Shown here piece after piece: positions 1,082 through 38,208 of a stretch of DNA of 42,699 nucleotides. Source of the stretch: a virus (Duplodnaviria > Heunggongvirae > Uroviricota > Caudoviricetes); the IMG/VR virus record IMGVR_UViG_2870490042_000003. One strand, written 5' to 3'. The position numbers and the translations under genes are program-made. Position 1 is the first letter of the stretch. Every line of letters begins with the position of its first letter. Under the pieces are notes generated by a model. It was not told where the DNA came from. It saw only the letters and a list, made by a program, of their open reading frames with translations, and made no database searches.

Positions 1082-1408
1082 ATGACTAAAAATACTCGTT
1101 TTTCCCCCGAAGTCCGTCAACGGGCAGTCCGTATGGTTCTGGAAAGTCAGAGCGAATATGACTCACAATGGGCGACAATTTGTTCCATTGCTCCAAAGAT
1201 TGGCTGTACGCCGGAGACTCTGCGTGTCTGGGTTCGCCAGCATGAGCGGGATACCGGGGGCGGTGATGGAGGGCTCACCACCGCTGAACGTCAGCGTCTG
1301 AAAGAGCTGGAACGTGAAAATCGTGAACTGCGCCGCAGTAACGATATCCTTCGCCAGGCTTCCGCTTATTTTGCGAAGGCGGAGTTCGACCGCCTCTGGA
1401 AAAAATGA
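1082..1408 (+). CDS. IS629 transposase OrfA
   Basis: ATG at 1082 preceded by GAGAAAGAGG; 108 aa; ends in an A6 run (1400-1405, TGGAAAAAATGATG), the likely -1 frameshift site giving OrfAB. Confidence 0.85.
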
Positions 1409-2295
1409 TGCCACTGCTGGATAAGCTGCGTGAGCAGTACGGGGTCGGACCGCTATGCAGCGAACTGCATATTGCCCCGTCAACGTATTACCACTGTCAG
1501 CAACAGCGACATCATCCGGATAAACGCAGTGCCCGTGCGCAGCGCGATGACTGGCTGAAGAAAGAGATACAGCGCGTATACGATGAAAATCACAAGGTAT
1601 ACGGTGTGCGTAAAGTCTGGCGTCAGTTGTTACGGGAAGGTATCAGAGTGGCCAGATGCACTGTGGCACGTCTCATGGCGGTTATGGGACTTGCCGGTGT
1701 TCTCCGGGGTAAAAAGGTCCGTACGACCATCAGCCGGAAAGCCGTTGCCGCAGGCGACCGCGTAAACCGTCAGTTCGTGGCAGAACGACCTGACCAGCTG
1801 TGGGTGGCTGATTTTACTTACGTCAGCACATGGCGGGGCTTCGTCTATGTGGCGTTCATCATTGATGTGTTTGCCGGATACATCGTGGGGTGGCGGGTCT
1901 CATCGTCCATGGAAACGACATTCGTGCTGGATGCACTGGAGCAGGCGTTATGGGCCCGTCGACCGTCCGGCACGGTCCATCACAGTGATAAAGGTTCTCA
2001 GTATGTATCGCTGGCCTACACACAGCGGCTTAAGGAAGCCGGATTACTGGCATCAACAGGAAGTACAGGCGACTCGTATGACAACGCGATGGCGGAGAGC
2101 ATCAATGGTCTTTACAAAGCGGAGGTAATACACCGTAAGAGCTGGAAAAACCGTGCAGAAGTGGAACTGGCCACACTCACGTGGGTGGACTGGTATAACA
2201 ATCGACGATTGCTGGAAAGGCTGGGCCATACTCCTCCGGCAGAAGCAGAAAAAGCTTATTATGCTTCCATCGGAAACGATGATCTGGCAGCCTGA
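1405..2295 (+). CDS. IS629 transposase OrfB (DDE integrase-type catalytic domain)
   Basis: 296-aa ORF in -1 frame relative to orfA; IS3-family transposase-like sequence. Confidence 0.85.
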
Positions 2296-2297
2296 GT

Positions 2298-5200
2298 TCA
2301 CAGATAAAACACTCTCCAGGAAACCCGGGGCGGTTCAGTAAGGTTTTGCCCGTCTGTTGTTTTTTGCGCATAAAACAGATACGCAGCAGACGTTCCAACC
2401 TCAAAAACGTTTTGTCGAGTACTGGAACCCCACACCCTGATACTAACTGGTAGTTCTGAATTACCTGAATTAAGTAAAGCAAAACGATTGCCAGTCCCTG
2501 TTTGTTTTCTAATTACTAAATCGGCAGTTGAGTTAACCTCATCTTTGTTGATGGTTAGCGCCTGCGCTGTAGCACCGTTAACAGTGCCACTTAGTAGTTG
2601 AACCGCTCCATCATCGCCATTTAACAGCACTTGAGCGCTGCTTCTGTGGTTTTTCAGGAACAACATTTTGCCTGTGCTTTCTGATGTGCCTACCGACCAC
2701 GCCGAATTGGTTCCAGTGCTATCAACACCGCGCACAGCACAATTCATACTACTGTAATCTGACGTACTCCCCAGCACATCAACACGCCCGCCGCCTAATT
2801 TTGATGGAGTCGTCGAGGTTAACGACCTGACGGTTACATCCTGATTCCATCCTGAAACAACTACCTGACTCCACTCCGTCCAGTTTCCATTGACAACAAA
2901 GCGAACGTATATGCGTTTTGTGTCGCTGCCAATCAGCGTTTGCATGATCGCATAATCTGAACCCGTAGTTTTACGAGTAGATTCTACACGTAGCAAAAAG
3001 TTACCGCTTACGCCGTCAGGCTTATTGGTAATATATGCACCACCTGCAACAGTTTTGCATTGATAGTATTTAACAGATCCAGCCACTGTATTAGCAATGA
3101 TCAAGTCGTTTAAATCAATAGTCTTGTTGTCAATGGTTTCCGGCTCGATAGATCCCGCCATACCTGCGTTAAATGTGGCAAAGTCAGAAAAGGTTGTTTT
3201 ACCGCCTACCGTCACCCCGCTATCGAGTTTTGCTTGTGTGATTACTTTGCTGTTTTTTGTGTGGTCAGAATAACTACCAAAATACAAATCACCGTCACCA
3301 GCTATACCCAGGTATTTTTGATCAACATCATCAACCTTAAACCCAATGGACAAGTTTTTAATTGTGTTGTTGCTCGTTAAAACCAAAGGCGTATGCTGAG
3401 ATCCTTTGATGCTTACCGTAGTGTTATCGGAACTGGTGCTTGTGTTTGCAAATTCTGCGGTGGCTGCGCTGATTTTGTAAGTTATTTTTAGATTGCGGGC
3501 CTCAACCCTCCCGTCGTGGCGAACAATAAAATCACCACTTGATTCACCTTTTGTGTTTTTCGCCCTGATGTGGATTTCGCCAAGTGATTCGTTGTTTTCA
3601 GGCGACCAAACAACGCCGCGCTCGCTTCCGTCGTTGTTCATGAACCACAGATGAGCGGTTCCTTTTGCTGATTTTAGCCTGATAGATGGCGTTTCTTTCA
3701 ATATATCAAGATCACCAGACATAACATCGCCGGATTTTTTCACCTGCGCATCGTTAGTTACGTTGCCAAGTCCAACATCCGATTTCGACGGCTTGTTTGC
3801 CGAGCCGTATAGCTCATTGATGCTAAAAGTCCCGTTGTTAAGCCGGGCATCGTTGCCGGCATAGATCTTAATCTTCGCGGTTGAGTAGTCGATATTGATC
3901 GCTGACCACGTATCGCCGCACCGCGAGAATATACCAGAACCGTGGCTATAAATGGTCGCCGTGCTTCCGGTCGGCTTATCACCGCGCCAGAAATGACCAC
4001 CTTTGTCACGCAGAGCTTTTAAGATCTCTACATCGCTCATCTTGCCGTTTGTTGATATCCCGCTACCGCCAAGACCGAAAGCGCCTGTAAGCATAGCATT
4101 AGAAAGACCCAAATCTGCTTTAGTCGGCTTGTTTAACTGGTCGTAAATCCTTACAACGGGGCTTTCAACATATCCAGAAGGCGCGGCGGTTTGCTTAACA
4201 AATCCGTCTGGAATGTATAATTCCGGGCGTGCCGTCTGCGCCAGCACCGCAACCTTTGCGCCGTTGATAAATGCGCGCTGGAAGGCCCAAACCTCAATAA
4301 AGCCGTCACCTTTAACCAGGCCGTAACGCATCTGGTTGTTATCGGTCAGCCCGGTTGACCCTAAGCGGCGTATACTCAGATGACGAGAAACATTATCCGC
4401 ACTAAGCAAAGAAGGCAGACCGCGCGCCGAGATCTCGATAAAGTCAATGTTTCCGTAAGGGGAGCCGTAGTTACCGGCATTAGTAACCATTAGCGTTACA
4501 TGGCAATTGCCGCTTCCGGGATCGGAAAGTTTCGCGATCTTTATGTAAAAAGACTCATTACCAGTAACAACGGGCCAATCGTATTGCGTCATCGGGCTGA
4601 CGAGTCCCCCGACCTTGTCGAGATATTCTTTCGCCTTGTTCTCTGACGCTTTAGCGTTGGTTTCGCTGACCTTTGCTGCTGCCTCACTATTTTTCGCGTT
4701 GGTTTCTGATTTTTTGGCTGCTGTCGCGGAGTTTGCCGATGCAGTTTGTGAGTCTGCTGCCGCCTGTGCGCTGTTATCCGCATTCGTCTCAGACGTTTTT
4801 GCGGCCTTCGCGGAATTTCCTGCTGCCGTTGCCGAGGAAGCTGCACTGCCGGCGCTCGAGGCAGCGCTCGTTTCTGATGATTTTGCCGCCACTTTTGAAG
4901 CCGACGCATCCCGGGCTGAGGTGGCAGCTTCTGACGCTTTCGTGGTCGCGGTGGATGCAGATGTGGCCGCAGATTTTTGTGATGCTGCGGCATTCATTTC
5001 CGACGTTTTCGCTGCACCGGCACTGGTGGCTGCCGCGCTTTTTGAAGACTCTGCGGCGGCAGCACTTTTTGATGCTTCAGTGGCCTTTGTTGATGCCGTT
5101 CCTGCGCTGGAAGACGCTGACTGAGCCGACGACGCGGCCTGTCCGGCTGACGTGCTGGCTGCACGTGCTGAGCCTGCAGCATCAGTCGCACGGGTTGCCG

Positions 5201-26669: not shown

Positions 26670-26885
26670 TTACTCTCCCCGTGCCGCCTTACGACGGTCC
26701 TCTCTGATTTTGAAATACAGGTTAGTCAGATATGTCAGCAGCCCAAACAGCAGACTCCCCAGCACGCCTATTGCCGCCCACTGAGACGGGGAAACCCTGT
26801 CCAGCAACTGCAGGAACCAGTAGCCCGTTCCCACCGCTGACGTGGTGTATGACACACCTGTTGTGATTTTTTCCATCTGGTCCAT
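26670..26885 (-). CDS. S: Holin, phage 21 S-like pinholin with dual start (MDQM)
   Basis: 71 aa from ATG 26885; …[50 protein letters not shown] resembles S21; the track's ORF extends to an upstream alternative start. Confidence 0.8.
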
Positions 26886-27192
26886 ACCCCGTCTCCCGTT
26901 ATCCGGAAGCTGACAACAATAAAAAAGCCACCAGTTAACTACTGATGGCTCTGATAACTCATGCAAGCGTCTCAGACGATCCACTGACACTACCGGTGAG
27001 TTTAACGATACCTTCCATTTGACTGGCTCACTTTTTATGATGATGCCGGTGTATTTATCTCCAGCACCAGACTTTCTATCTCAACGCCATACGTTGCATT
27101 TTTGGTAATATCCGTCAGCGTCAGTGCATTTAGTCCCACTGCCAGACCGTCTTTTATGGTCTGGAATGCCGGGCCAGTACGATGACGTAGTA

Positions 27193-27381: not shown

Positions 27382-27641
27382 GGTTCTTTCCACCATCTGA
27401 AAAATAATTCTTTAAAATACCAGACATGTAACACAGAAAAAACACAAAACCATACCTTAAATAGAAACCTGATCATCAAGCAGATATGCATGGATAAACT
27501 ACAAGACGAGATATAAACCACCCTGCATTTAAATAAACAATAAACAACATCAGAAAAATAATTCTGCTCTATGGTTTATATTCAAAAATATCATTTATAC
27601 TTTTCAGAACATCACCAGCAAGGCATAAACAAGGAAGCTAA

Positions 27642-27977
27642 ATGAAGTGGATTGTAATTGATACAGTTATCCAGCCATCATGCGGAATATCTTTTTCAGT
27701 CATATGGAGTAAAGTAAAATTAATAATCTGGTATCAATCGGATGCTTTCTTACCTCCTGAAAGTATATTTACACTGACTCACACAGGTATCATGCTCAAT
27801 AACAAAGTGCTACCTGTAACCATTTACAACGTAGTACCATTCAATAAAACATTCTGGAATTTAATCAAAAACAGCCAGGAATGCCCTACAAATACAGATA
27901 ACGTATTGAATGAATGCTTTAATAACCGTTGCATTCTGCAAATATGTCCTTATGGACTAAAACAACAAAGTCCATAA
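27642..27977 (+). CDS. Hypothetical protein (111 aa) in an AT-rich cargo island, convergent with late transcription
   Basis: ATG 27642 with AAGGAAG SD 4 nt upstream; surrounding 27.40-28.00 kb is markedly AT-rich; no family recognised. Confidence 0.45.
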
Positions 27978-28012
27978 GGAGTTTACTCACATCTGACAAA
28001 ATCAATATAAAC

Positions 28013-28216
28013 AGCCCCTCCGGAGAGGGGCTGGAGAGTGGCGCTATGTGCCATTGCATGGTGCCGGGTGCCTCCCGGTGAATTCAGTACCAGCACCTGA
28101 ATCCGCGATTATCCCATATACCTACTCGCTGATTACCCCTCCGCACAGGGGGATTCACCATGCGAAATTTTTTAACAAACTTCCCGCCGGCCAGACAATA
28201 ATCGCCAGCCTGAATT
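28013..28216. repeat. Copy 1 of a diverged ~205-bp direct repeat beginning with GC-rich hairpin AGCCCCTCCGGAGAGGGGCT
   Basis: Shared blocks with copy 2: AGCCCCTCCGGAGAGGGGCTG, CATGGTGCC..GCCTCCCGGT.AATTCAG, GGGGGATTCACCATGCGA, TTTTTAACAAA, GCCAGACAAT.ATC. Confidence 0.7.
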
Positions 28217-28475
28217 ATGAGCAACGTGGCATTTTACGGGAAAACTGTTTTCTGCAGTAAAAAGGCCCGCCGGAGCGAGCCTGGAAGGATAGCGGTCATG
28301 TGATGCCGGTTTCCCGGTAACTCAGCATCGGTATCTGAGTCAACGTTTTCTCTACTGGGTCATTTCCGATACGTTCCGCCTTCCGGCAGACTTTCATCAC
28401 GTCAGAAAATATAGCACCCTGAGTAACAGGACAGTACTCAGAATTCAGGAAACTGTGACACATCCTGCACAGAAA

Positions 28476-28685
28476 AGCCCCTCCGGAGAGGGGCTGAAGT
28501 ATAGCCTAATTTCTGTCTGTCGCATGGTGCCAGGGGCCTCCCGGTAAATTCAGCCTGTCTACTGAATTTGCATGTTCTCTGGATCATACACTTTGCCAGA
28601 TGCCCCGCCGCTGAGGGGGATTCACCATGCGATGTAATTTTTAACAAATTCTCCGGCAGCCAGACAATCATCAAGCTGTGGAATT
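28476..28685. repeat. Copy 2 of the diverged ~205-bp direct repeat
   Basis: Same conserved blocks as copy 1; the hairpin read on the - strand is followed by TTTTCTGTG. Confidence 0.7.
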
Positions 28686-28867
28686 GTGAGGTATTTAAAA
28701 ATTTCAACGGGTAACTGATACCCTGCTAATCGCCTGATGCTTTCTTTTTCAGCAACGGGAAAGCAACAACCACACACCCGCCACCAAAACACCATCAGAC
28801 AGCACCGACATTATCCGGCTGCTGAAGTCCACCATCACCACCAGAAACAACAGGAGTGCAACCACAG

Positions 28868-28910
28868 CTGCTTAGAAGGCAATTGCTCTGCCCGGCTGAG
28901 CTAACAACGC
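28868..28910 (-). pseudogene. Truncated tRNA-Arg(UCU): 5' half only (acceptor 5' strand, D-arm, anticodon arm)
   Basis: - strand GCGTTGT-TA-GCTC-AGCCGGGCA-GAGC-A-ATTGC-CTTCTAA-GCAGC has tRNA geometry with anticodon TCT, but no T-arm or 3' acceptor strand follows. Confidence 0.55.
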
Positions 28911-29010
28911 TGAATACCGATAATGGACCGCCATCGGGGACCCGCCCCCGCACCAACAACCCTGTTATCGTGTCGTCTGCTCTTCCTGATAAGCTAATGG
29001 CGGTTTGTGA

Positions 29011-29086
29011 TGGTGGCCCTTGCTGGATTTGAACCAGCGACCTGGCGATTATGAGTCGCTCGCTCTCACCACTGAGCTAAAGGGCC
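29011..29086 (-). tRNA. tRNA with CAU anticodon (tRNA-Ile2 ileX/ileZ-like, or Met), encoded CCA
   Basis: 76 nt folded by hand into a canonical cloverleaf: acceptor GGCCCTT/AAGGGCC, D-stem GCTC/GAGC, anticodon loop CT-CAT-AA, T-stem GCTGG/CCAGC, T-loop TTCAAAT, discriminator A, CCA. Confidence 0.85.
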
Positions 29087-29125
29087 GGGAGTAGAATAAT
29101 AACGGTCCGTAACTAATTCCGCAAT

Positions 29126-29149
29126 AAAAAACCCGCTCGGCGGCGGGTT
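29126..29149 (-). terminator. Candidate tR' (late terminator downstream of pR')
   Basis: - strand AACCCGC-CGCCGA-GCGGGTT followed by TTTTTT, about 50 nt downstream of the candidate pR' -10. Confidence 0.55.
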
Positions 29150-29196
29150 GTAGAAACTCTTCTAACGTCAGGCATAAAAAGCCCATTATTATGACG

Positions 29197-29224
29197 AATT
29201 TACCACAGATTCCGGAAAAATCAA
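29197..29224 (-). promoter_or_regulatory. Candidate late promoter pR' (-35 TTGATT, 16-bp spacer, -10 TAAATT)
   Basis: Immediately downstream of the Q stop on the - strand; the -10 TAAATT matches my recollection of lambda pR'. Confidence 0.45.
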
Positions 29225-29229
29225 CCTTG

Positions 29230-30051
29230 TTACCTAGTTACCTTTTTTAACTGCCGCTCAGCCCATGCTTCTTCAATATCAAACCGGGTCACCAGCGCAT
29301 CATAGAATTTCTTAACTGTTTTTTCCCATGACGCGCGTGTTATCTGGTTTGTCACCTCGCATATAGCATTAAATGTCTCCGTTGATGGTAGTCTTTCATA
29401 GCCACGACCACCACAACGCTGGCAGTCTCTGATAACAGGCATACCACGTTTTACCGACTCTTCACGATGAATGGCGACACCACGCCCACGGCAATCCTTA
29501 CAGGCGGTGGAAACCTCACCCTTTCCGCCACACTCCGGACAGGCAACTTTTACCACCTCCCTGACTTTTTTCCATTCTTCCCAGTAAGACGAATACACAC
29601 CTTTCGTACACTTTGCCCATACCGGCGGCTTACCATCCGGATACTGGACCTTGTTTGTAAAAACTACGCTTTCAATAAATTTTTCCCCATAGCAACAAGG
29701 GCACTGCTTTTTACTCGCTGCGCTGCGGGCATAATCCTCAAAAGCGTACGAAGCCATAATGCGCATCACTAACGGTTTTATTTCTGCCGGAAGTTTTCTC
29801 AACGCCGCAACACGATCGCACCGACTGAGTGCATAATCTGCCAGTAATTCTGTTGCCCGCGCCCTGTCATTCATACTGATGCCCATTTTCCCCAGGAACG
29901 CAGAAAACCCCATCTCAGCCCGATTCTGTGTCATGCCCTGCGCGGCCATCACATCAGTGATACTCAGCGCATCTTTTGACGTTGAGGCCGATGCATCGGT
30001 CAGGCCAGGGGATTTTGGGGAGTAGTATTTCGGTAAATCTTCCAGTTTCAT
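29230..30051 (-). CDS. Antitermination protein Q (QuuQ-like, zinc-binding Cys clusters)
   Basis: 273 aa; MKLEDLPKYYSPKSP… N-terminus and CxxC clusters (CPCCYG, CPECGG, CKDCRG, CQRCGG); ATGA overlap with rusA; followed by pR'/tR'/tRNA. Confidence 0.75.
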   Translation of the reverse strand: MKLEDLPKYYSPKSPGLTDASASTSKDALSITDVMAAQGMTQNRAEMGFSAFLGKMGISMNDRARATELLADYALSRCDRVAALRKLPAEIKPLVMRIMASYAFEDYARSAASKKQCPCCYGEKFIESVVFTNKVQYPDGKPPVWAKCTKGVYSSYWEEWKKVREVVKVACPECGGKGEVSTACKDCRGRGVAIHREESVKRGMPVIRDCQRCGGRGYERLPSTETFNAICEVTNQITRASWEKTVKKFYDALVTRFDIEEAWAERQLKKVTR

Positions 30052-31934: not shown

Positions 31935-32090
31935 TTACTCCTCAGGTTCGTAAGCTGTGAAGACAGCGACCTCCGTCTGGCCGGTTCGGATTCGTACCTC
32001 GCAGAGGTCTTTCCTCGTTACCAGTGCCGTCACAATGACGGTTAAACAGATGACGATCAGGGCGATTAACATCGCCTTTTGCTGCTTCAT
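31935..32090 (-). CDS. hok: Hok/Gef-family type I toxin (HokD/RelF-like)
   Basis: 51 aa MKQQKAMLIALIVICLTVIVTALVTRKDLCEVRIRTGQTEVAVFTAYEPEE; an in-frame upstream ATG at 32147 would give a 70-aa form. Confidence 0.85.
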   Translation of the reverse strand: MKQQKAMLIALIVICLTVIVTALVTRKDLCEVRIRTGQTEVAVFTAYEPEE

Positions 32091-32349
32091 AGCCTGCTTC
32101 TCCTTGCCTTTCGGCACGTAAGAGGCTAACCTAGATTTGCCGTTCATAGATTGAGCCTCAGATTAATGTTAAGCGTCTTGCAGGACGCGTAATGTTAACT
32201 GGGGCTTTTCTCTATCTGCCTTTTGGTGTTCATGCCTGAGACAGATAGCCTCAAGCACCCGCAGTCATTCTACTTAACTAAGATTTCCCCGCAAACCGTT
32301 TTTGTCCGGCACAGTAAATATCCAACTAAACCAATGGCGTTCGCTGTAT

Positions 32350-37801: not shown

Positions 37802-38208
37802 TAGATAACCAACGAAGCTAAGGTTGGTAATTAAGGAGTTCTCCACGGGTGAGGTGGAGTGCGTGCGCCGGACACGGGTGAGCATCCGGCACTGACAGTT
37901 TACTGAAAGGATATTTCCCTGAAAAGTCAGACCATAACGCGAAAGCGCACGGCGAGGTAGCTGGTTCATAGATAGCCTGTCGTTAAATTTTCGTCGACCG
38001 TGCGCTTCCGGTTGTGGCAATCCGCGAAATGGCGCGGCGGTAAGTATGGCGGGGTTATTCCTTCCCCCGTTGAGGACACCGGGTTGTCAGGTTGACCATA
38101 CGCTTAAGTGACAACCCCACTGCAACGCCCTCTGTTATCAATTTTCTGGTGACGTTTGGCGGTATCAGTTTTACTCCGTGACTGCTCTGCCGCCCTTTTT
38201 AAAGTGAA

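Follow-up and report, generated by a model that had tools for sequence, protein, structure and literature searches.

What is encoded by the repeated DNA between the tRNA gene and the cargo gene of this prophage? A first-pass annotation, made from the sequence alone, had recorded two diverged copies of an element of about 205 bp at positions 28013-28216 and 28476-28685. It had suggested a structured RNA, a leader-peptide attenuator or extra terminators guarding the cargo locus, and had named descent from a duplicated protein-coding gene as one outcome that would count against these readings. We find that each repeat carries STnc100, an already described small regulatory RNA gene of prophages that is kin to PasD and EcOnc27.

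STnc100 genes between the late antiterminator and the lysis cassette

The window (the whole 42,699-nucleotide stretch of DNA that was analysed) is a nearly complete, Qin-like lambdoid prophage of E. coli, and its positions 27600-29250 are 100% identical to many E. coli chromosomes. Read along the minus strand, the gene order is DUF968/YdfU, RusA, Q, a candidate PR' and tR', tRNA-Ile(CAU), DUF3927 and then three units, referred to here as copy A (right), mid (middle) and copy B (left), all of which lie on the phage late-gene (minus) strand. Beyond copy B are the convergent iraM gene, on the plus strand, and then DUF1737, a class II holin, YdfR, lysozyme and Rz. The array is the cargo ("moron") region of the interval that separates the late antiterminator from the lysis cassette (Table 1).

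Table 1. Features of the array and its surroundings, numbered along the window.
Feature	Positions	Strand	Elements and basis
Q antiterminator	30051..29230	-	PF03589
Candidate tR' terminator, just downstream of Q	29130..29149	-	Terminator scan; role assigned from position
tRNA, CAU anticodon	29011..29086	-	RNA scan and PGAP (tRNA-Ile per PGAP)
DUF3927, short ORF of 38 aa immediately preceding copy A	28749..28865	-	PF13064, 42.6 bits; PGAP
Copy A, predicted promoter	28638..28667	-	-35 TTGTCT, 28667..28662; 18-nt spacer ending TG; -10 TAAAAA, 28643..28638
Copy A, sRNA of ~163 nt, predicted start 28630	28468..28630	-	P1: 28630..28623 with 28529..28522
Copy A, linker GACAGACAGAAAUUAGGCUAUACUUC, candidate seed	28496..28521	-	Between P1 and terminator
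Copy A, intrinsic terminator	28476..28495	-	AGCCCCUC-UCCG-GAGGGGCU, then UUUUCUGUG; terminator scan; second reported hairpin
Mid, unit	28257..28416	-	Extended -10 TGCTATATT, 28416..28408; predicted RNA 28402..28257
Mid, linker AUGACCGCUAUCCUUCC	28299..28283	-	Fold
Mid, terminator	28282..28263	-	Terminator scan; same hairpin type as in copies A and B
Copy B, predicted promoter	28169..28198	-	-35 TTGTCT, 28198..28193; TG; -10 TAAAAA, 28174..28169
Copy B, sRNA of ~159 nt, predicted start 28163	28005..28163	-	P1: 28163..28156 with 28063..28056
Copy B, linker AAUGGCACAUAGCGCCACUCUC, candidate seed differing from that of copy A	28034..28055	-	Fold and module comparison
Copy B, intrinsic terminator	28012..28033	-	Terminator scan; first reported hairpin
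iraM (anti-adapter protein), cargo, convergent with copy B	27642..27977	+	NF007393, 162 bits (cut-off 121); PGAP
Holin	26888..26673	-	PF04971

Both copies lie where the first-pass annotation had placed them, and a repeat finder recovered four ordered conserved blocks of 27-35 nt (83-93% identity) with diverged sequence between them; overall, copies A and B are 74% identical (159 of 215 aligned columns). A search of the RNA family database, one of the checks that the annotation had proposed, identified both as members of RF02076 ('Gammaproteobacterial sRNA STnc100'; gathering score 47 bits). Copy A matches at 28660..28467 on the minus strand with 138 bits (E 1.8e-30) and copy B at 28191..28003, also on the minus strand, with 132.5 bits (E 4.6e-29), and each match covers the full model (1-206). 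The likeness of the two copies is far above chance, as each of them matches the same Rfam covariance model from end to end.

A third unit, mid, lies between the two copies and had been missed in the earlier annotation. It matches the whole RF02076 model at a permissive threshold (28431..28256, 30 bits, E 3e-4), which is below the gathering score that copies A and B pass, and it is 57-60% identical to them with the same helix plan. Mid was found in 24 loci including the window (unchanged in nine others and as an allele of ~90.5% identity in 14), and in all 24 it is positioned between two canonical copies that are 467-483 nt apart. The two alleles differ mainly in helix P2, where the hairpin is kept through changes of U-A to C-G, U-G to U-A and C-G to U-G. 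Among 5426 complete E. coli genomes, 672 carry mid, about half with each allele (UTI89 is one example). Mid is not debris; it is a sub-threshold third paralogue, a diverged relative of STnc100.

A nucleotide search for the element elsewhere, also proposed at the outset, revealed that it is widespread in E. coli genomes and phage records. Sequences like copy B occur in 2857 of the 5426 complete genomes, at a median of two and a maximum of 12 places per genome, and in 353 phage records, mostly of Stx-converting phages. Other loci likewise have tandem pairs on one strand and arrays in which as many as four copies are evenly spaced, and one IMG/VR locus holds five copies, four of them in tandem. 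Among the lambda-like prophages of E. coli, an STnc100-type array is nothing out of the ordinary. A DUF3927-type ORF ends 50-200 nt upstream on the same strand in 81 of 163 family copies, and such an ORF precedes PasD1 and PasD2 too. In RefSeq the locus has no ncRNA annotation, and copy B is covered by a pseudo 'hypothetical protein'.

RNA fold, covariation and exchangeable 3' modules

The three predicted RNAs share a common fold plan, in which a multi-branch 5' domain closed by helix P1 is followed by an unpaired linker (17-26 nt across the three units), a terminator hairpin and a U tail. In copies A and B, P1 is formed by GCAUGGUG and CACCAUGC, and the domain of ~105 nt contains P2 (CCCCU...AGGGG), a variable hairpin, P3 (GGAUUCAG...CUGAAUUC) and P4 (CCGGG-AGGCA-CCCGG). 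The corresponding helices in mid are GUGAUG/CAUCAC (P1), CUGCC-GGAA-GGCGG (P2), ACUCAG/CUGAGU (P3) and CCGG-GAAA-CCGG (P4). Minimum free energies are -64.9, -50.3 and -69.8 kcal/mol for copy A, mid and copy B, respectively, with z scores between -2.9 and -3.2 (-3.2 for both A and B). The minimum free energy fold of copy A contains P1-P4 and the terminator, and these folds reproduce the consensus structure of RF02076, including its closing helix, internal hairpins and terminator. The perfect hairpins AGCCCCTC-CGGA-GAGGGGCT that first drew attention to the repeats are present at 28013-28032 and 28476-28495, and read on the minus strand they are indeed followed by T-rich tracts (TTTATATTGA after the first and TTTTCTGTGC after the second), although the U tract of copy B is poor (UUUAUAUU).

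Relatives were collected by scanning IMG/VR with the pattern TTAAAAAN{4,9}GCATGGTGAATCC, which returned 120 loci with 141 instances and 67 distinct full-length RNAs. In a MAFFT alignment of the 67 RNAs, 94.3% of the cells in five helices are standard pairs, as compared to 39-52% when the partner column is slid, and both-sided changes are seen in six of the eight pairs of P3. The 5' strand of P1 was dictated by this pattern, so the same loci were also searched with an nhmmer profile built on the 5' domain, yielding 163 copies that include neighbours not matching the pattern. Among these neighbours, P1 is found in the compensated variants GCAUAGUG with CACUAUGC and GCAUGAUG with CAUCAUGC, and the GUGAUG and CAUCAC strands of mid are counted with them. 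When 62 distinct domains were aligned, five of the eight pairs of P1 and five of the eight pairs of P3 displayed both-sided changes, and 96.3% of the cells pair versus 37-47% when slid, values that none of 500 shuffles reached (counts in both alignments are of sequences and cells rather than independent events, as the relatives are linked by descent and recombination). P2 and P4 are neither supported nor contradicted by these comparisons, since they hardly vary among the relatives. The proposal of a structured RNA, as opposed to a protein gene, is borne out by the STnc100 family match and by compensatory changes in P1 and P3 among the 62-67 distinct relatives.

The relatives are mosaic in their construction. 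They share the promoter, P1, P2, P3 and P4. Their internal hairpin module is of one of several unrelated types, and their 3' end is one of no fewer than seven combinations of linker and terminator, which are swapped among otherwise similar 5' domains. The distribution of the copy B linker shows this module shuffling directly, as it is found behind three different internal modules in other loci; the linker of copy A, when aligned, is similar to the ACAGAGAUUAGGCAUAUAC module that the STnc100/EcOnc27 copy of 933W carries. The best conserved segment of the RNAs is the 5' domain, unpaired positions included (GAAUC, the AGGCA loop and, in most variants, an invariant CCGGGAGGCACCCGG). As their linkers are different, copies A and B differ exactly at the position of the proposed seed of PasD, and from this equivalence we infer that the linker acts as the seed. 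That the 5' domain is better conserved than the presumed seed is unusual for Hfq-associated sRNAs.

Candidate targets were sought within the window. When the three linkers were compared by RNAduplex with 90 translation-start regions in the window, none scored above shuffled linkers. The sole strong match in this comparison is to a plus-strand ORF that is antisense to copy B itself. Duplexes between the whole sRNAs and the DUF3927 mRNA were no better than those of dinucleotide shuffles, by a method that is crude for long RNAs, and they lend no support to a type I toxin-antitoxin reading of the sRNA and DUF3927. A scan of genome contigs with the 15-base pattern GCATGGTGAATCCNCC produced only chance matches in unrelated phyla (L005-L124), which were ignored.

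Promoters, transcripts and competing explanations

The 5' ends of copies A and B were placed by analogy with PasD1 and PasD2, whose ends have been mapped to 1060260-1060432 and 741157-741328 of NC_011601 (Table S6, PMC8550237). Both PasD loci were aligned to the three units, and their RNA-seq 5' ends coincide with the G of GCAUGGUGAAUCC, upstream of which is the arrangement TTGACT-N18-TAAAAA-N7-G; the promoter geometry of copies A and B is the same as that upstream of the PasD1 and PasD2 ends. In this alignment the distal conserved block of the repeats (28169-28203 and 28638-28672) corresponds to the predicted promoter and falls outside the predicted RNA. Because the PasD 5' ends are mapped and copies A and B have the same arrangement of elements, we assign their outermost conserved block as the promoter, and the start of the RF02076 model, about 29 positions, is probably promoter as well, judging by where PasD begins. 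The position of the promoter elements is conserved in 46 distinct upstream sequences. The elements are weak, and a consensus promoter scan did not report the minus-strand -35 and -10 of copies A and B. Plus-strand promoter matches at 28172-28199 and 28641-28668 were rejected, as what they match is the minus-strand -10 and -35 elements in mirror image, and the PasD 5' end favours the minus strand.

We consider it likely that the locus specifies three independently transcribed, Hfq-dependent sRNAs with different seeds that base-pair in trans, arranged head to tail as an STnc100/PasD array on the late strand. This trans-acting reading is the best supported because of the published behaviour of its STnc100, EcOnc27 and PasD relatives. 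Against it weigh the stronger conservation of the 5' domain than of the presumed seed, the weak -35 and -10 elements, the poor U tract of copy B, the ribosome footprints on some EDL933 copies and the target scans within the window, in which no linker beat its shuffled controls. Each gene would be transcribed from its own sigma-70-like promoter (TTGTCT, 18 nt and TG-n-TAAAAA in copies A and B; the extended -10 element TGCTATATT in mid), and its predicted start site is the G of GCAUGG. The RNAs would measure ~145-165 nt, and each would comprise the conserved 5' domain, a copy-specific linker and a GC-rich terminator with a U tail, the last of which may bind Hfq by analogy with PasD1/PasD2 and EcOnc27/sRNA103. 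The linker would pair as a seed with host or prophage mRNAs in trans, and the different linkers would give the three copies different sets of targets. As a side effect in the lysogen, the units may form three further late-strand barriers after tR', and Q-modified polymerase would read through the three terminators.

A reading in which the units are translated was suggested by the ATG-initiated frame MVNPP.RRG that both copies share, and this frame does exist (copy A, MVNPPQRRGIWQSV; copy B, MVNPPVRRGNQRVGIWDNRGFRCWY). It can be traced to conserved helices, since AUG-GUG-AAU includes the 5' strand of P1 and the CCCCC...GGGG sequence belongs to P2. A short MVNPP... peptide, or a Pro-Pro leader peptide whose translation controls the downstream terminator, would account for the AUG at +3 in nearly all variants and for the ribosome footprints on some STnc100 copies of EDL933 (ribosome coverage values up to 3.2; PMC5331693). 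In addition, the 3' strand of P2 (CGGAGGGGC) is identical to the 3' strand of the terminator, so that attenuator-like 1:2, 2:3 and 3:4 pairings can be drawn. However, the frame varies from 8 to 56 codons and yields 35 different peptides in 67 variants, one of which is frameshifted after MVNP, while another relative has lost its AUG to AUA with a compensating C-to-U change on the other strand of P1, and mid encodes an unrelated MKVCRKAER... at this position. No Shine-Dalgarno sequence was found for the MVNPP frame, and its AUG is inside P1. When the anti-terminator pairing between the P2 3' strand and the terminator 5' strand was forced in copy A, the fold reached -54.2 as compared to -64.9 kcal/mol, 10.7 kcal/mol worse than the best, and such pairing is impossible in many variants that join the same P2 to an unrelated PasD-type terminator. 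The peptide and attenuator readings are largely refuted, and we regard them as very unlikely. Similarly improbable is the view that the units have no present function and represent either a duplicated protein gene in decay or a mobile repeat, for example a MITE. Although 'hypothetical protein' or pseudogene ORFs are annotated over the units in RefSeq and GenBank and genomes hold many copies (up to 12), no reading frame is kept among the variants on either strand (stop-free stretches do not exceed 61 codons), unit lengths fall into all three classes modulo 3, substitutions preserve the RNA helices, the examined copies share prophage position and orientation, and a repeat search found no terminal inverted repeats. 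The copies are not remnants of a protein-coding gene, an outcome named at the start, as their frame varies in length, is shifted in one variant, loses its AUG in one relative and is not conserved across the variants. A plus-strand ORF over the units was rejected because no plus-strand frame is kept among the variants.

The remaining explanations accept the RNA structure and differ in what it is for. We think it quite unlikely that the units are purely cis-acting terminators or insulators, with functionless RNA products, that shield the iraM-antisense and lysis region from transcription arising at PR' or upstream. The array does lie within the path of the late transcript, and four minus-strand terminators are found between Q and the lysis genes (29149..29130, 28495..28476, 28282..28263 and 28033..28012), where shuffled sequence leads one to expect 1.5 terminator sites in the scanned region. 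Nevertheless, a terminator needs only ~30 nt, whereas here the multi-helix domain upstream, ~105 nt long, has been conserved and shows compensatory changes, each unit is preceded by a promoter-like block, and relatives accumulate as discrete Hfq-associated RNAs. The idea that extra terminators guard the cargo locus is therefore retained in part: the hairpins are terminators in the late-transcript path, and a barrier role for them when Q is not present is plausible, but they are primarily the terminators of sRNA genes and iraM is on the opposite strand. It is also unlikely that the 5' domain itself is the functional part, not as a carrier of the seed but as a protein-binding decoy, RNA sponge or sensor to which the 3' end is secondary. 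Such a role would fit the high conservation of the domain, including its unpaired positions and loops, the free exchange of linkers and terminators, and the fact that the STnc100 family has no recorded function; against it, a protein partner or ligand is not known, PasD remains an active Hfq-bound RNA though it is devoid of P4 and its target motif complements a site 5' of the terminator, and the conservation could reflect recent common descent and prophage recombination.

A further reading, which we put forward only tentatively and consider rather doubtful, is a 'scaffold plus exchangeable seed' cassette, in which the promoter and 5' domain have a function of their own and are recombined with 3' modules, mid represents a separate unnamed subfamily, and DUF3927 and the sRNA form a functional module. 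If this were true, the 5' domain would serve stability, processing or protein binding, mid would stand for a subfamily that is below the Rfam threshold and yet present, as two helix-keeping alleles, in ~12% of complete E. coli genomes, and DUF3927 would be, for example, a small membrane protein with its expression or effect coupled to the sRNA.

Relation to known sRNAs

Published work already covers the STnc100 family, where it lies in prophages and how it is related to PasD, and the locus is a common one. A common ancestor of PasD and STnc100 has already been proposed (bioRxiv 10.64898/2026.05.13.724894; Zhu, Shabalina and Storz 2026). In EDL933, copies of STnc100 are transcribed, with northern blot confirmation for STnc100_4 (PMC5331693). 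The STnc100 copy of an Stx2 phage overlaps EcOnc27/sRNA103, an Hfq-binding sRNA that was recovered by Hfq-CRAC and is northern-positive (PMC7873438; PMC12711010), and Tree et al. described such sRNA genes as sitting in the moron site downstream of PR' (PMC4104026). PasD1 and PasD2 are abundant and their stability is Hfq-dependent, as judged by northern blots; they form RIL-seq chimeras with core and virulence mRNAs, and the motif found in these targets has its complement immediately 5' of the PasD terminator (PMC8550237).

Few bacterial sRNAs are annotated as often as those of the STnc100 type, and the identification as such changes little for the field. The gain for annotation is that spurious 'hypothetical protein' ORFs stand over these sRNA genes in RefSeq and GenBank, which have no ncRNA there. 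In the accessible literature we did not find the sub-threshold third paralogue, the conserved scaffold with exchanged 3' modules, or tandem arrays, the PasA and PasD copies being reported as dispersed and distant rather than tandem (bioRxiv 10.64898/2026.05.13.724894). The linkage to DUF3927 was not found in the accessible literature either and is unmentioned in the same preprint. The third paralogue, the tandem arrays, the swapped presumed seeds and the DUF3927 linkage are small additions to research on prophage sRNAs.

The array resembles PasD1 and PasD2 of EPEC E2348/69 (Pearl Mizrahi et al. 2021) in its identical 5' start (GCAUGGUGAAUCC), in its promoter geometry and in a P3 hairpin that is kept via compensatory changes. 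Copy A also shares their synteny, as it lies directly after a DUF3927 ORF and downstream of Q. PasD differs in that P4 is missing and the 3' half is unrelated, with UGUGAG as its proposed seed and a terminator of its own. It scores 41.4 bits on RF02076, which is under the gathering score, and its similarity to the units does not extend over the full length or to the seed: only the first ~30 nt, P3 and a GGGAGGC block align, and none of the three predicted RNAs contains UGUGAG.

The STnc100 genes of 933W and Sp5 likewise lie downstream of Q and PR' and upstream of the lysis genes, and the 933W gene shares its linker module with copy A. In 933W, 75 nt separate stx2B from the STnc100 gene that follows it (207.7 bits), with AsxR in convergent orientation, whereas in the window the array follows DUF3927, comprises three genes in tandem, has no AsxR or AgvB partner and is convergent with iraM, and the linker of copy B is different. 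Neither of the anti-sRNAs of ~55 nt, AsxR (RF02703) and AgvB (RF02702), has a match in the window at the gathering score, or in 27400-29300 at E values up to 5, and the same AsxR model does detect AsxR in 933W.

Paralogous sRNA genes that lie side by side, have separate promoters and terminators and differ in part of their sequence are also known from OmrA/OmrB, PrrF1/PrrF2 and Qrr. In those systems the seed is conserved, whereas in the window array it is the 5' scaffold that is conserved and the presumed seed that varies. Finally, lambda 6S RNA and StxS are small, terminator-ended RNAs encoded on the late strand in the same region of the phage map. They are prematurely terminated late transcripts, the counterpart of which would here be 29190..29124, upstream of the tRNA; unlike them, each of the three units seems to be served by a promoter of its own.

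Gene neighbourhood and array size in the STnc100 family

The DUF3927 small hydrophobic ORF that precedes copy A, the first of the window's three tandem STnc100-family sRNA genes, recurs in the same setting elsewhere, as such an ORF also lies directly upstream of the related EPEC sRNAs PasD1 and PasD2 (loci L003/L004). Among the 163 family copies in the collected loci, 81 have a DUF3927-type ORF on the same strand ending 50-200 nt upstream, and a search for special complementarity between the sRNAs and the DUF3927 mRNA revealed none. The largest array seen occurs in two further loci, L208 (6956-7937) and L225, where four STnc100-type genes follow one another head to tail, spaced ~260-270 nt apart, and a fifth is found ~2 kb upstream of these, after two tRNAs. 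Standard Rfam annotation misses both PasD and the middle unit of the window's array; in the case of PasD, this is because PasD2 (L003 1628-1832) scores 41.4 bits on RF02076, just below the gathering score of 47.

Features flanking the sRNA genes and elsewhere in the prophage
Feature	Position in window	Strand	Support or context
ALIL frameshifting pseudoknot	1363-1479	+	RF01497, 120 bits
296-aa ORF	1405-2295	+	ALIL pseudoknot at its start
iraM homologue (cargo gene)	27642-27977	+	NF007393 score of 162 bits; convergent with copy B
DUF3927 small hydrophobic ORF	28749-28865	-	directly upstream of copy A
tRNA, CAU anticodon, annotated tRNA-Ile	adjoining 28866-29010	-	single tRNA in this region
Candidate terminator tR'	29149..29130	-	right after Q
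Candidate late promoter PR'	TTGATT 29224..29219, 16 nt, TG-G-TAAATT 29205..29197	-	right after Q
sok antitoxin RNA	32085-32260	-	112 bits
DicF sRNA	38144-38195	+	76.7 bits

Sequences facing copy B

The stop codon of iraM, whose product is an anti-adapter that protects RpoS, is spanned by a perfect 12-bp inverted repeat (27947-27958 / 27969-27980). Because no T tract follows this repeat, iraM transcripts may run antisense into copy B, the last gene of the array. On the plus strand, antisense to copy B, public records also annotate a 'hypothetical protein' or pseudogene (window 28048-28260; 4449-4574 in locus L001). Copy A interrupts this frame and relatives do not conserve it, so the call is probably spurious.

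Prophage context and comparison with related phages

The sok and DicF RNAs both fit a Qin-like prophage, and hokD is annotated beside sok in identical genomes. At the window's left end, the position of the ALIL pseudoknot at the start of an ORF suggests an IS3-family insertion sequence. The window has a single tRNA, with a CAU anticodon, at a place where three are found in Stx and related phages: two tRNA-Arg plus a CAU-anticodon tRNA annotated as Ile or Met. Remnants of the other two may persist in the minus-strand stretch between this tRNA and the DUF3927 ORF (28866-29010). The candidate PR' scores only 8/12 and is absent from the consensus-scan list; the PR'-tR' pair, in the stretch 29124-29224, would yield a leader RNA of ~65 nt, a counterpart of lambda 6S RNA or StxS.
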